Positions 11,880 to 15,655 of a DNA stretch of 34,089 nt are shown one piece after another. Source of the DNA: Minisyncoccota bacterium (GTDB lineage: Bacteria; Patescibacteriota; Minisyncoccia; Phycocordibacterales; CAIJYI01); assembly GCA_041666665.1 (NCBI GenBank), contig JBAYGK010000001.1:1-34089 (forward strand). The letters are read 5' to 3'. The position numbers and the translations under genes were made by a program. Below the pieces are notes generated by a model. That model saw only the letters and a list, made by a program, of their open reading frames with translations, was not told the DNA's origin and searched no databases. The number at the start of each line of letters is the position of its first letter. The stretch's first letter is position 1.

Positions 11880-11910
11880 CAAAAGCCCGGCATGCCGGGC
11901 TTTTTATTTT
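11880..11910. terminator. Bidirectional rho-independent terminator
   Basis: 16-nt perfect GC-rich palindrome GCCCGGCATGCCGGGC (11885-11900), flanked by AAAA and TTTTTATTTTT. Confidence 0.8.
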
Positions 11911-12035
11911 TATCTCTTGAGAAATTTCAAAAACTCGTCTTCGTCCAAAATCTCTACGCCGAGTTCTTGGGCTTTGTCGTATTCACCGCCGAGGTCAACG
12001 CCTGCCACGGTAAAACCTGTGTTTTTTGAAGATTC
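11910..12035 (-). pseudogene. Remnant of a ligA 3' end (last 41 codons, BRCT C-terminus)
   Basis: The minus strand translates [41 protein letters not shown], against the ligA end [42 protein letters not shown]. An in-frame TGA lies immediately upstream (12036-12038). Roughly 80% nucleotide identity by eye to 13600-13715. Confidence 0.75.
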
Positions 12036-12065
12036 TCAAGATTTATTTGTTTTTCTTTTTTATTC

Positions 12066-12119
12066 CGCAATATTCAATTCCCTATTAATCTTGCGACCGC
12101 AAAATTAATAGGGAATTGA
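12066..12119. repeat. Palindrome family C, copy 1
   Basis: CGCAAT-ATTCAATTCCCTATTAATCTTGCG-ACC-GCAAAATTAATAGGGAATTGA. The stem is about 21 bp with one mismatch, and no T-run follows on either strand. Confidence 0.85.
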
Positions 12120-12190
12120 GGCAAAAAGAAAATTAGCATGAAAATGCTATTCCTACCGCCTCCGCATAAGAAGCGGTTCCTTAAATAGGT

Positions 12191-12760
12191 TTAATCCAAT
12201 TCAAAATATTTTCGCAAAGATTCATCACCTTCAATGTGTTTTGCCACGATGTAGAGAACCTCTTTTCCGATTTCAAATTCCGCCTTAAGCAAAGCAATCA
12301 CGTCTTCGCAATCATACGGAAAAATCCAAACGCTGTTTTGAAGTTTGATAAAACCGAAATTTTGCAATTCGCGCCGAATGCCGTCCCTTGTTTCTTTTTT
12401 GTATTCTTTAATATCAAATGCCACCACCCGCCAGCATTTGTCCCATTTCTTTTTCGTTAAAAGTTTTTCTTTTATTTTATAGCGTAAAAGTTCACTCTCT
12501 CCCTTCGGGGTAATACGAACGTAAGATTTTCCGTCTATTTTTTCAAACGTTATGTACCCGCTTTTCCGAAGTCGTTCCGTAGCCTGATTCATATAGTAAG
12601 GGGTCCAATGCCGCTTCTTTTTTCCGGCAAAAAGAGTAAGCGCTTGCACCGCATTCGGAGCAAGAACTCCAAAAGCAAGAATTCCGGTAATCGCCAATGT
12701 GCCAAGAATAATTCGCCGTATTTCGTCACGATTAACGCTTTCTCCCGTTATTTTTGTCAT
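12191..12760 (-). CDS. Membrane-anchored PaaX-like protein (winged-helix-like segment plus Cas2-like fold segment)
   Basis: TM helix IILGTLAITGILAFGVLAP. A wHTH-like stretch ATERLRKSGYITFEKIDGKSYVRITPKGESEL. Then WDKCWRVVAFDIKEYKKETRDGIRRELQNFGFIKLQNSVWIFPYD, the W..W.lv.fdIpe..r..R..lr..L...GF..L..SVW..P pattern of PaaX-family central domains. I prefer the start at 12760 (TGCTAAAAT-GACAGGT-ATG); the track start is 12769. Confidence 0.75.
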   Translation of the reverse strand: MTKITGESVNRDEIRRIILGTLAITGILAFGVLAPNAVQALTLFAGKKKRHWTPYYMNQATERLRKSGYITFEKIDGKSYVRITPKGESELLRYKIKEKLLTKKKWDKCWRVVAFDIKEYKKETRDGIRRELQNFGFIKLQNSVWIFPYDCEDVIALLKAEFEIGKEVLYIVAKHIEGDESLRKYFELD

Positions 12761-12781
12761 ACCTGTCATTTTAGCACACCA

Positions 12782-12832
12782 CGCAATAATTCCCTATTAA
12801 TCTTGCGACCGCAAGATTAATAGGGAATTATT
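12782..12832. repeat. Palindrome family C, copy 2
   Basis: CGCAAT-AATTCCCTATTAATCTTGCG-ACC-GCAAGATTAATAGGGAATTATT. The 22-bp stem is perfect, and the centre has the same orientation as in copy 1. Confidence 0.85.
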
Positions 12833-12853
12833 GATATGAAAAACTCTAATTTT

Positions 12854-12905
12854 TTATGAAATCATTTTAAAAAACTCGTCCTTGTCCGGAATCTATGCGC
12901 CTCAT
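12854..12905 (-). pseudogene. Second, short and decayed ligA 3'-end remnant
   Basis: TTTTAAAAAACTCGTCCTTGTCCGGAATCT resembles ligA CTTCAAAAACTCGTCTTCGTCCAGAATTTC. The minus strand reads IPDKDEFFKMIS* against lig[15 protein letters not shown], with an in-frame TAG just upstream. The match is short and could be chance. Confidence 0.4.
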
Positions 12906-12907
12906 TC

Positions 12908-13579
12908 TTACGCCGTTGGCATTTCTATTTTCCTTTTTACGTTTCTCCGCCCGTACCAAACCAAAAAAAACAAAAAGGAAAACAACAGAAACAGTATTGA
13001 TCCGTATTTTGGGCTATCAACGAAAGTCTGCCAAATTATGAAATAGAATATTATTCCCAAAGAGTACAGAGAATTAACCCAGAGTGAAAATTTTAAAAAC
13101 CACCAATCAAGTGAAAAAGTAATCGGCTTTTTCATGTCAAAAAATCGCCATGCGATACCGGCGCATGCTATTGCCGCAAAAAAGAGGGCAAAGATCAAGA
13201 AAACCCTGTCTGCGCCGACAAACACCACTTGAGTGAGAGAAACAACCCACCATTCACATCCGGCGCACATGCGAGATTCTATTGCAACCAACTCCCTTGC
13301 ACTATCTCCGCCCCAAATATTAAGTGCCGCAAAAACAAGATTCATAACGGTATATCCCAACAACAAGAGGTGTGCCCACAAAATCCTTTTTTTCATATTA
13401 AGGTAAATAAAGACCGCCGATATTCCGAAGATGATATATCCGGCGATTGCCGTGCGAAGCAAGTAGAAACTTGAGTATCCCCCAACGAACAATGCCGCGA
13501 AAAAGAAAATGGCAAAGAAAAGCCCCGTGTAACCGACAAGCGTCTTTTTTTGATCAACGTGCTTGTTTAATTTATCCAT
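12908..13579 (-). CDS. Hypothetical polytopic membrane protein (223 aa)
   Basis: About 6 hydrophobic helices. The ATG lies 6 nt after the ligA stop. I recognise no family. Confidence 0.7.
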   Translation of the reverse strand: MDKLNKHVDQKKTLVGYTGLFFAIFFFAALFVGGYSSFYLLRTAIAGYIIFGISAVFIYLNMKKRILWAHLLLLGYTVMNLVFAALNIWGGDSARELVAIESRMCAGCEWWVVSLTQVVFVGADRVFLIFALFFAAIACAGIAWRFFDMKKPITFSLDWWFLKFSLWVNSLYSLGIIFYFIIWQTFVDSPKYGSILFLLFSFLFFLVWYGRRNVKRKIEMPTA

Positions 13580-13585
13580 AAAAAA

Positions 13586-15655
13586 TTATTTGTATGTTAT
13601 AAGCTTCAAAAACTCGTCTTCGTCCAGAATTTCCACACCCAATTCTTGCGCTTTGTCGTATTTGCTTCCGGGGTCTTCGCCCGCCACCACGAAATCGGTG
13701 TTTTTGGAAACAGAGCCGACGACATCGCCGCCCAGGTCCTTTATTTTTTGTTTCGCCTCATCACGAGAAAGCGAGGCAAGCGTTCCGGTCAGAACGAAAG
13801 TTTTACCGAAAAGCCGTAAATCTTTCTTTTTTTCATTGTCAAGGCGAAACCTTGACAATGAAACATGGCGAAGAAGGCGGCGTACGAGGTCTTTGTTTTC
13901 TTTTTCGTGAAACCATTCAACGATTGATTTCGCAACGACGCCGCCGACACCGTTGATATTTTCCAGTTCTTCCATCGTCGCTTTTTCCAAATTTTCCATC
14001 GTGCCGAATTTTTCCGCGAGATCCTCGGCGGTTTCTTCCCCCACATTCGGAATGGAAAGCGCGGTAATGAAGCGCGGAAACGAAATTTCTTTTCGCGCTT
14101 GTATCGCTTCAATGATATTTTCAGCCGATTTTTCCGCAAAACGAGGGAGGACGAGCAGATCGCCCTTTTTCAGCGAAAAAATATCGTCAAAATTCACGAT
14201 AAGTCCGTGCCCCAAAAAGAGATCAATGTTTTTCGGACCCATGTGTTCAATGTCAAAAGCGTGTTTGGAAACAAAATGATAGAATTTCCGTTTTTGTTGG
14301 GCGTACGATTTTTTATTCACGCACCGCCACGCCGCCTCCCCTTTAATGCGCTCTATGGAACCGTCGCCGCCGCACGCGGGAACATTTTTGGGAAAGATAT
14401 ACGGTTTTTCTTTTCCCGTCCGCATTTCGGTAACGACTTTCACGATGTCGGGGATAACATCGCCCGCCTTTTGCAAAATCACCGTATCGCCGACGCGGAC
14501 ATCAAGGTGTTTTATCTCATCTTCGTTGTGCAGTGTGGCGCGCGAAACGGTTGAACCGGCGACGGAAACGGGAGTCAGATGCGCAACGGGGGTCAGTACG
14601 CCGGTGCGCCCGATTTGCAAAACGATGTCTTCCACCACTGTCGTTACCTGCTCTGCGGGAAATTTGAAAGCGATGCCGAAGCGCGGGGCTTTGCCCGTAT
14701 AGCCGAGTTCATCCTGATATTTTCGTTCGTTTACCTTTATCACCGCGCCGTCAATCCAATAATCTTCTTTTTTGCTCATTTTCTGCCATTTTTTCCAATA
14801 GGCGATAATGTCGGCCGTATTTTTGCATTTTTCAAAATGAGGATTTGTTTTAAAACCGAGGCGCTTCATTTCCAAAAGCTCTTCTTCCTGAGTGGTTGGA
14901 AATTTCTTTCCGTATTTCGCGATATCGTAAACAAAAACATCAAGTTTGCGCGATGCGACCACTTTCGGATCAAGCTGGCGAATGCTTCCCGCGGCGACAT
15001 TTCTCGGATTCGCAAATAACGGTTCTCCCTTTTTCTCCCTTTCTTTATTGATGCGCGCCAATTCTTTTTTCGCGAGCCATACTTCCCCTTCAACGATAAT
15101 ATCAACATCGTCTTTCAAACGAAGCGGGACGGATTCAATCGTCCGCACATTCATCGTTACGTCCTCCCCGATTTTTCCGTTTCCGCGCGTCGCCGCCGTT
15201 ACAAGCAATCCTTTTTTGTAAGTCAAAACCACCTTGAGTCCGTCAATTTTAAGTTCGCAAATATATTCGGGAGAAATTCCCGGATATTTCTTCCCGCTCG
15301 CAAGCGGGACCCCGCCCGCGGCGGTGGCACGCAAAAATCTTTTCACGCGCGCGTCAAAATCCGAAATATCTTCTTCCGTAAAAGCGTCGTTGAAAGACCA
15401 TTGCGGAATTTCATGCTCTATTTTCACGAATTCCGGCAGTGGTTCGCCCGCAACTCTCTGAGATGGAGAATCGGGCGTGATAAGTTCGGGGTATCTCGTT
15501 TCCAGCGTTACCAGTTCTCGCTTAAGCGAATCCAGCGCCTCGTCCGAAATTTCCTGCTTATCCAAAACATGATACAAATAACGGTGGTGTTCAATCGCCT
15601 TTTTAAGCTGTTCCACGCGAGCGGCAATATCGCCCGGTATTTTTTGAGAAGTCAT
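13586..15655 (-). CDS. ligA: NAD-dependent DNA ligase
   Basis: Adenylation motif ELKIDGLKV (KxDG), an OB fold, a Cys4 zinc finger (PACGGD...WRCVN), HhH repeats and a C-terminal BRCT domain, in 689 aa. Confidence 0.95.

Follow-up and report, generated by a model that had tools for sequence, protein, structure and literature searches.

Truncated copies of the ligA 3' end, probable recombination scars, at an accessory-gene hotspot in a Minisyncoccota bacterium

The ligA-gatC interval and its truncated ligA ends

The stretch of DNA considered here, referred to throughout as the window, comprises 34,089 nt of contig JBAYGK010000001.1 (assembly GCA_041666665.1) from a Minisyncoccota bacterium (Candidatus Paceibacterota/Paceibacteria; Patescibacteria/candidate phyla radiation, CPR), and all coordinates refer to it. 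Our subject is the interval between ligA, which encodes NAD-dependent DNA ligase, and gatC (Table 1). In this interval, the functional 3' end of ligA (copy A) is followed by two truncated, co-oriented copies of itself: a short remnant (B) and a long remnant (C), the left junction of which we term J1. The only genes between the ligA-end copies are a 223-aa orphan open reading frame (ORFan) and a gene for a PaaX-like protein with a PaaX_M domain, the latter with one palindrome upstream (P1) and another downstream (P2). An initial reading made from the letters of the sequence (below, the sequence-only reading) had listed this gene order, the palindromes, the terminator, and the in-frame TGA that closes the long remnant, and each of these features was recovered in place. 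The stop codon of the ORFan falls within remnant B, and the terminator is shared by remnant C and a convergent 59-aa open reading frame (ORF). The 223-aa protein has no Pfam match and a single distant homologue (28% identity, 234 aa) among 1.84 billion representative proteins.

Table 1. Features of the ligA-gatC interval and the DNA-uptake genes of the window
Feature	Position	Strand	Remarks
ligA, NAD-dependent DNA ligase, 689 aa	13586-15655	-	all ligA Pfam domains, BRCT at residues 617-686
Copy A, last ~120 nt of ligA	13586-13709	-	repeated end; ligA is the conserved left anchor
223-aa hydrophobic ORFan, cargo gene	12908-13579	-	ATG 6 nt past the ligA TAA
Remnant B, decayed ligA end	12851-12913	-	last ~57-63 nt of ligA
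P1 palindrome	12784-12833	.	50 nt; 24-bp arms and 2-nt centre, arms 100% complementary
PaaX-like gene	12191-12769	-	Pfam PaaX_M PF20803, E 4e-20; probable start 12760
P2 palindrome	12074-12119	.	98% copy of P1, downstream of the PaaX-like gene
gatC promoter -35 relic / J1	12023-12043	-	AATCTTGAGAATCTTCAAAAA; CAAAAA run overlaps the first codons of remnant C
Remnant C	11910-12029	-	last 39 codons and stop of a different ligA allele; in-frame TGA closes the upstream side
Bidirectional intrinsic terminator	11881-11904	.	10-bp stem, 6 G-C, T-runs on both strands
59-aa ORF	11697-11873	+	convergent to remnant C
gatC	11318-11677	-	Pfam GatC; ancestral right-hand neighbour of ligA
gatA	9736-11193	-	after gatC
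Type IV pilus genes	24165-32523		PilM, PilO-like protein, PilB, PilT, response regulator, PilC, pilins
ComFC-like protein	32392-33351		double zinc ribbon and phosphoribosyltransferase

Both ligA-end similarities that had been proposed, the long and the short, are significant: the long one in tblastn, and both in alignment scores compared with shuffles. Remnant C and the ligA end agree at 79% of positions over 105 nt with no gap; tblastn aligns the two at 78% over 37 aa (E 4e-15), and the Smith-Waterman score of 100 compares with a maximum of 34 in 200 dinucleotide shuffles. The differences are predominantly silent: 12 of the 37 aligned codons carry synonymous changes only and 8 carry replacements, six of the latter lying in codons 1-16 and none in the 19 that follow. 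For a 19-codon stretch, the sequence-only reading had counted 8 nt differences in 7 codons, all synonymous, and the count is exact. Only a few of the replacements are clearly damaging, namely those in the conserved DPGSK motif (P to L, S to G, and K to E).

We compared these differences with those found among relatives, which carry L-numbers here and are loci obtained from close ligA homologues, the contigs encoding them, and a metagenome scan. On the software alignment, the bias toward synonymous change in C that had been read off by eye persists: by the Nei-Gojobori method, the proportion of synonymous differences (pS) between C and the window ligA end is 0.66 and that of non-synonymous differences (pN) is 0.12, giving a pN/pS of 0.19. 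The counterpart of C in loci L009/L010, which we call C', has a pN/pS of 0.26 against the L009 ligA end, and pairs of functional ligA ends give 0.14-0.18; like C, C' has few replacements that are plainly damaging. Since the values for the remnants come close to those for functional pairs, both C and C' were functional ends of other alleles until fairly recently, which bears out the proposal that ligA alleles diverging under coding selection gave rise to the remnants. The tail of C, EFLKFLKR*, resembles that of L068, EFLKLLKR*, and over its last 57 aligned nucleotides C shares 93% identity with the ligA end of L011 versus 86% with window ligA; the numbers are small, and this closeness of C to the L011 and L068 ends is no more than suggestive. 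C and C' themselves differ in the manner of alleles (pS 0.75, pN/pS 0.30). Intragenomic gene conversion refreshing the remnants found no support, as each remnant is at least as close to other alleles as to the ligA of its own genome.

Remnant B is shorter and more degraded. It matches the ligA end at 44 of 63 positions, ungapped and in register, and terminates on the stop codon. None of 3000 shuffles of the query and none of 5000 shuffles of the target attained its score of 36. The remnant reads A*E*GA*IPDKDEFFKMIS*, with three in-frame stops. It begins at the KAQ codons of ligA, about 65 nt nearer the stop than the SKNT codons at which C begins, and lies 24 nt upstream of P1, the same position that is occupied in L008 by the ligA stop itself (43 nt upstream of P1). 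B is probably a former functional ligA end that was displaced on arrival of a segment carrying a ligA end and the 223-aa gene.

Empty sites, variable cargo, and the PaaX-like gene in relatives

In five relatives (L011, L068, L028, L015, and L022) the site is empty, with ligA directly followed by gatC. The start of gatC lies ~42-46 nt past the ligA stop in L011 (ligA 85% identical) and L068 (83%), and in L028 (81%) the -35 element of the gatC promoter lies within the last ligA codons (L028 1085-1135). A promoter-like sequence, cTTGGAAttct.tcAAAAatgaGGTATGATaagg, is conserved immediately before the gatC ATG. Relatives at greater distance show this order too. The ancestral state is ligA, then the gatC promoter, then gatC. 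Empty-site variants of the kind anticipated by the sequence-only reading do exist; in them, ligA is followed by gatC and its promoter and not, as had been expected, by the terminator at 11885-11900. Neither that terminator segment nor a homologue of the 59-aa ORF turned up in any relative locus fetched, and homology between the window and L008 picks up again at 11632.

The slot between ligA and the PaaX-like gene varies strongly in content. It is empty in L008 and holds the 223-aa ORFan in the window (a gene absent from L008, L009, and L071-L074), a GNAT acetyltransferase gene in L009/L010, a gene for a 557-566-aa protein in L071 and L072 (present also in L024, without the PaaX-like gene), and a reversed 162-aa membrane gene in L073; L024 shows a further cargo arrangement, with no palindromes. 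At least five unrelated cargo states are found in the slot. Given the empty sites and this varied content, the ligA-gatC interval is, by comparison of these loci, a true accessory-gene hotspot with empty-site variants, polymorphic rather than a fixed triple arrangement. Other ligA-end remnants were sought and not found in L008, L071-L073, L020, L026, L068, L070, L024, and L018. Small G+C-rich insertions resembling hairpins or miniature inverted-repeat transposable elements (MITEs) occur in the intergenic DNA of relatives (L009 10026-10126, L072 6650-6860, L073 6790-6890), and in L009 one such insertion stands between ligA and the GNAT gene.

The comparison with empty sites also reveals the composition of J1. 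The motif at this junction, AAATAAATCTT..GAA.T.CTTCAAAAAAC, is followed by ligA-end sequence. The left side of J1, AATCTTGAGAATCTTCAAAAA, aligns with the sequence just past the ligA stop in the empty-site locus L068 (AATCTTGGAATTCTGTCAAAAATAAGGTACTAT; AATCTTGGAATTCTGTCAAAAAT), as well as with the pre-gatC region of L008, L011, and L026. J1 is accordingly a joint between the gatC promoter -35 region and the ligA SKNT codons, located in a CAAAAA run that both partners share; a 9-nt identity (CAAAAACAC / TCAAAAAAC) is common to the ligA site and J1. The window and L009/L010 are colinear through P1, the PaaX-like gene, P2, a 34-nt spacer, and the remnant, and C and C' share J1 at TCAAAAAAC. In L009, C' is followed by a decayed copy of the same GNAT gene that follows the functional ligA; here the stop of the ligA remnant and the start of the displaced GNAT copy share bases (ATGA).

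The gatC promoter of the window is split, its -35 half lying at J1 and its -10 half before gatC (11604-11632), with ~400 nt in between that comprise remnant C, the terminator, and the 59-aa ORF. Since only ~6 nt separate the end of the promoter-like sequence from the gatC ATG, the gatC transcript may be leaderless.

The PaaX-like protein (192 aa) consists of a hydrophobic N-terminal helix, a winged helix, and a Cas2-like domain. Its AlphaFold model has a predicted local distance difference test (pLDDT) score of 72 overall and >87 for residues 111-192, the Cas2-like domain; among PDB entries the model matches E. coli PaaX best (8a39, E 1e-4), with PaaX-like regulators next and Cas2 proteins after them. 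The match to TIGR02277 is partial (45 bits versus an equivalog cut-off of 264 bits), and the 192-aa protein has no match to the C-terminal PaaX domain and lacks the full-length (~300 aa) architecture. Orthologues with 66-93% identity adjoin ligA in seven relatives that belong to one subclade (the window, L008, L009/L010, L071, L072, L073, and L074), and from this stable synteny the PaaX-like gene is a conserved neighbour of ligA in the clade and not cargo. Of the two cargo units in the sequence-only reading, then, the ORFan slot stands as variable and the PaaX-like gene does not.

A scan of GTDB genomes with the PaaX-like protein returned distant homologues only (27, at 34-47% identity, up to three per genome), and in total we examined 31 PaaX_M modules, including 26 of these 27. 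In 22 of the 31, all in Patescibacteria, an identical long palindrome stands on both sides of the gene (the pattern was seen at the window and among loci L041-L067, L011, L020, and L071-L074). The palindromes are perfect and 36-58 nt long, with module-specific arms and conserved centres, CGRYCG or GCTATAGC/GCATATGC; some loci hold 3-5 copies. Both palindromes listed in the sequence-only reading are thus instances of a trait of the whole family. No description of palindrome-flanked PaaX_M genes was found in the literature searched. P1 and P2 are the only copies of their own palindrome family in the window, and that family was found only beside the PaaX orthologue, apart from a solo copy between ligA and gatC in L026. 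At the position between the prepilin peptidase gene and ligA, the window carries a 40-nt palindrome of another family (15711-15750), and L008 carries a third copy of the PaaX-associated palindrome (L008 7957-7996), which thereby brackets ligA too.

In the orthologues read, a -10-like box precedes the ATG by ~6 nt, and the palindrome directly upstream of the box covers the -35 position; in the window, it is the promoter-proximal arm of P1 that overlaps the -35 position of the promoter of the PaaX-like gene. Palindrome arms change in a compensated manner between relatives. P1 is likely an operator, and the simplest reading of the protein is an autoregulated DNA-binding protein with predicted operators on both sides of its gene. 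In this it would resemble the PaaX-family repressors, with which it shares the winged helix and Cas2-like middle domain and the placement of palindromes over its own promoter (here seen in sequence); it differs from PaaX in its length of 192 aa, the hydrophobic N-terminal helix, the missing C-terminal domain, the long perfect palindromes on both sides, and the occurrence of several modules per genome.

Three other roles for the module or its palindromes were considered and rejected. The DNA flanking the gene in the 31 modules contains no repeat besides the palindromes, except in the window and L009; gene-end duplicates thus being confined to these two, the PaaX-like module does not itself create the ligA duplicates. 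An integron-like array with the palindromes as attC sites is contradicted by the lack of an integrase and of palindromes at most cargo genes: no palindrome stands on the ligA side of the 223-aa gene, the GNAT gene, or the 557-aa cargo, and cargo is palindrome-flanked only in L073. Elements of the repetitive extragenic palindrome (REP)/RAYT or MITE type do not fit either, as there is no HUH/Y1 transposase and there are not many dispersed copies. Scans of viral contigs for J1 and the palindrome consensus gave no hits.

Origin of the displaced ends

We consider the ligA-end copies to be recombination scars of the kind termed 3'-end displacement, formed at an accessory-gene hotspot with no need for a dedicated mobile element; we put the probability of this explanation at about 0.58. 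Three observations make a mobilising activity unnecessary. First, the scars begin at different places: C at the SKNT codons, B at the KAQ codons, and no scar at all in L008, where the PaaX-like module is present. Second, ligA itself is mosaic, its breakpoints lying in various places: by sliding-window comparison, identity to L008 runs at 0.87-0.93 as far as roughly alignment position 1200, beyond which it equals that to other relatives, and the ligA genes of L071, L072, and L024 are only 0.4-0.6 identical over the 5' 900 nt and ~0.8 identical in the 3' part. Third, J1 joins the gatC promoter to ligA at a microhomology. This scar pattern would be the one expected of general recombination with one illegitimate joint. 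The sequence-only reading had noted that no integrase, transposase, or relaxase lies between the copies and had postulated an activity that is hidden or acts in trans; such domains are indeed absent from that interval, from every sizeable ORF of the window, and from the contig gene calls and flanks read, but the postulated activity is not needed.

The process may be pictured in three steps. DNA of a diverged relative would enter the cell, probably by means of the type IV pilus and ComFC machinery, and undergo a homologous crossover inside ligA; its far end, lacking proper homology, would then join illegitimately in the 3' region of the resident ligA; and the resident ligA end would be pushed downstream rather than replaced, staying behind as a truncated co-oriented copy. 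For C, incoming DNA ending in the gatC promoter -35 region would have been joined at CAAAAA to the SKNT codons of the resident ligA, and for B, a segment containing a ligA end and the 223-aa ORFan would later have been joined at the KAQ codons. The nesting of at least two events, as had been proposed, is plausible. Once formed, an insert bracketed by the ligA body and a remnant could be moved to other strains, or deleted, by an ordinary double crossover.

There is precedent for both parts of this scheme. Hotspots flanked by core genes and devoid of mobile elements diversify by recombination at the core genes beside them, especially in transformable species (PMC5635113), and for the displaced 3' ends in rhs, contact-dependent inhibition (CDI), and type VI secretion system (T6SS) loci a proposal invokes homologous recombination on one side and an illegitimate joint at the far end (PMC5361080). 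The pilus and ComFC-like genes (Table 1), together with a prepilin peptidase gene that adjoins ligA, would constitute a DNA-uptake set beside the hotspot, and experiments have demonstrated natural competence in Saccharibacteria (PMC10633639). Several divergent relatives with differing cargo come from the same samples as the window contig, which provides an opportunity for exchange.

Several points weigh against this explanation. Competence of Paceibacteria is only inferred. Among the loci read, there is no donor in which ligA is followed by the 223-aa gene and no recipient in which it is followed by the terminator and the 59-aa ORF. B is the younger remnant by nesting, yet it is more decayed than C. 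The window contig matches the 43-kb contig Ga0376277_0004205 of JGI metagenome 3300037810, is found nearly unchanged in ENA ERZ27249449, and appears in pieces in two SRA assemblies; the arrangement is identical across these four datasets, so no ongoing turnover is visible within the strain. A further difficulty is that the window and L009/L010 have the same J1, yet their remnants differ as alleles do and the downstream DNA is different, a combination that is unlikely to arise either from one old event or from two independent illegitimate joints at the same place.

A double-crossover transfer of the bracketed insert would produce the same junction with different remnant alleles in two lineages, the remnant being a chimera whose 3' part comes from each recipient. 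The shared J1 therefore suggests that the duplicated ligA end serves as a portable homology arm; a real site-specific system is the less likely explanation. The polarity that this idea predicts is clear in C and not clear in C'.

The alternative closest to the sequence-only reading is an integrative element that supplies a replacement ligA 3' end and integrates site-specifically at a core within the SKNT codons (TCAAAAAAC) by means of a recombinase that is encoded elsewhere or goes unrecognised. Repeated integration of this sort predicts just what the shared J1 presents, the same junction with different remnant alleles and downstream DNA, and the 9-nt identity speaks for it too. The footprint also resembles that of prophage e14 (and phage 21) at the 3' end of E. 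coli icd, where the element brings a replacement 3' end and leaves the original as a truncated, mostly synonymously diverged pseudogene: the icdC remnant is 165 nt long with 12 nt differences, 9 codons being changed synonymously and 2 non-synonymously. A co-oriented duplicate, truncated at its 5' side and diverged mostly at synonymous sites, is common to both cases, and the ligA site has empty counterparts in relatives. However, e14 is a 15-kb prophage with intE, xisE, and a fixed att core, unlike the inserts of 0.7-1.7 kb seen here, which have varying boundaries and no recombinase in or next to them or elsewhere in the 34-kb window. B starts at another ligA position, L008 has the module with no remnant, and the supposed end of the element is the host's own gatC promoter sequence. 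The only conserved inner gene, that of the PaaX-like protein, keeps its place in seven relatives and encodes what looks most like a transcription regulator, and PaaX_M modules elsewhere are flanked by palindromes and not by duplications. We consider an integrative element unlikely.

Unequal exchange between the CAAAAA runs of the gatC promoter and the ligA SKNT codons could instead have produced a tandem duplication in situ, the copy then decaying and being partly deleted and the ligA end being replaced later. J1 is the exact head-to-tail joint that such an exchange would leave between sequences ~140 nt apart in empty-site genomes, and the L009 duplicate holds a ligA end with the GNAT start and then a later GNAT fragment, in the same order as the original. 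It is the substitution pattern that disfavours a pure tandem duplication followed by neutral decay: at the observed pS, ~32 non-synonymous differences would be expected, about twice the replacements observed or more (14.5 in L009 and 10.7 in the window). Neutral divergence of C and C' from a common origin is likewise rejected (20 non-synonymous and 17 synonymous differences versus 29 and 8 expected). In addition, no sign of a further PaaX-like module is present, and an extra allelic replacement would be required in each lineage, making this account improbable as well.

Two stronger claims about mobility may be taken together: that the duplicated ligA end makes the insert transferable as a recombinase-free mobile unit, with exit mediated by the repeat, and, separately, that the palindrome-flanked PaaX_M genes constitute a recombination or cassette-capture system. 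We regard these as quite improbable.

Finally, it is very unlikely that remnant C was kept by selection, as a small ORF (32 aa, GTG start, 11910-12008) or for an RNA or terminator structure that serves the PaaX-like transcript: both the window and L009 keep 39 codons of unbroken frame with low pN/pS, a possible alternative start (GTG or TTG) stands at the same codon in both, the 34-nt spacer with J1 is ~88% conserved between them though pS between the two is 0.53, and a 19-nt inverted repeat brackets C, but C is replaced at invariant BRCT positions (those of the DPGSK motif) and C' at others, there is no recognisable ribosome-binding site, L008 and L071-L074 keep the PaaX-like module and have no remnant, and the inverted repeat is accounted for by the natural complementarity of the ligA end and the gatC promoter region.

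Surroundings, related systems, and meaning for the Patescibacteria

A few further features of the window deserve mention. A 283-aa ORF (4388-5239) contains a BRO-N domain, common in phage and virus proteins, and is the sole match in the window to a family of phage or mobile-element type, besides weak, sub-threshold Cas2 hits of the PaaX-like gene. Downstream of gatA, a 195-aa ORF (8971-9558) is bracketed by a 124-nt direct repeat (8483-8606 and 9587-9710, 91% identical); in L008, the 195-aa ORF follows gatA directly. The repeat pair may represent a further duplication of the bracketing kind, or else a repeated element of small size. At position 9945, an A-run is 1 nt shorter in the window than in the JGI contig, with a frameshift in the gatA C-terminus as a result. 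Rather than marking a genuine pseudogene, the difference probably stems from assembly or the homopolymer. An Rfam search of the region gave no match.

The closest parallel to the displaced ligA ends is found in the rhs, CDI, and Vibrio cholerae T6SS effector-immunity arrays, for which homology-facilitated illegitimate recombination is a proposed mechanism (PMC5361080, citing Jackson 2009, de Vries & Wackernagel 2002, and Prudhomme 2002). There, as here, a conserved 5' gene body acts as an anchor, the incoming segment brings its own 3' end and downstream genes, older 3' ends persist in the same orientation with their 5' part missing, and no dedicated recombinase is required. The signs of such displacement at ligA are a homologous anchor with breakpoints in ligA and, at J1, a joint at a short microhomology, with a differing boundary at B. 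Unlike in those arrays, the anchor is a housekeeping gene rather than a polymorphic toxin and the host is an uncultured Patescibacterium; the displaced ligA ends also have no variable functional tip or immunity partner, leaving no obvious selective logic for their retention. With mobile-element-free hotspots (Oliveira et al. 2017, PMC5635113), the ligA-gatC interval shares a short core-gene interval, many unrelated accessory genes, the absence of mobility genes, recombination in the flanking core gene, and DNA-uptake genes. Those hotspots normally diversify by clean double homologous crossover, in contrast to the events between ligA and gatC, which were imprecise and left datable scars.

The process is thus of a known kind, a core-gene-flanked hotspot with 3'-end displacement scars, and the locus is a new example of it in an under-studied phylum. 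Patescibacteria have tiny genomes with few recognisable mobile elements, and the route by which they gain strain-specific genes is poorly known. At this locus, ORFan genes are swapped at a single core-gene junction, and the scars allow the process to be reconstructed while supplying junction sequences that can be searched for in reads and other genomes; the family-wide palindromes around PaaX-like genes provide a separate, testable lead. The findings agree with a view of gene turnover in Patescibacteria as driven by DNA uptake and housekeeping recombination. If the duplicated ligA end does act as a portable homology arm, then a cassette with the body of an essential, universally conserved gene on one side and a truncated copy of its end on the other could enter any related genome with no recombinase of its own.

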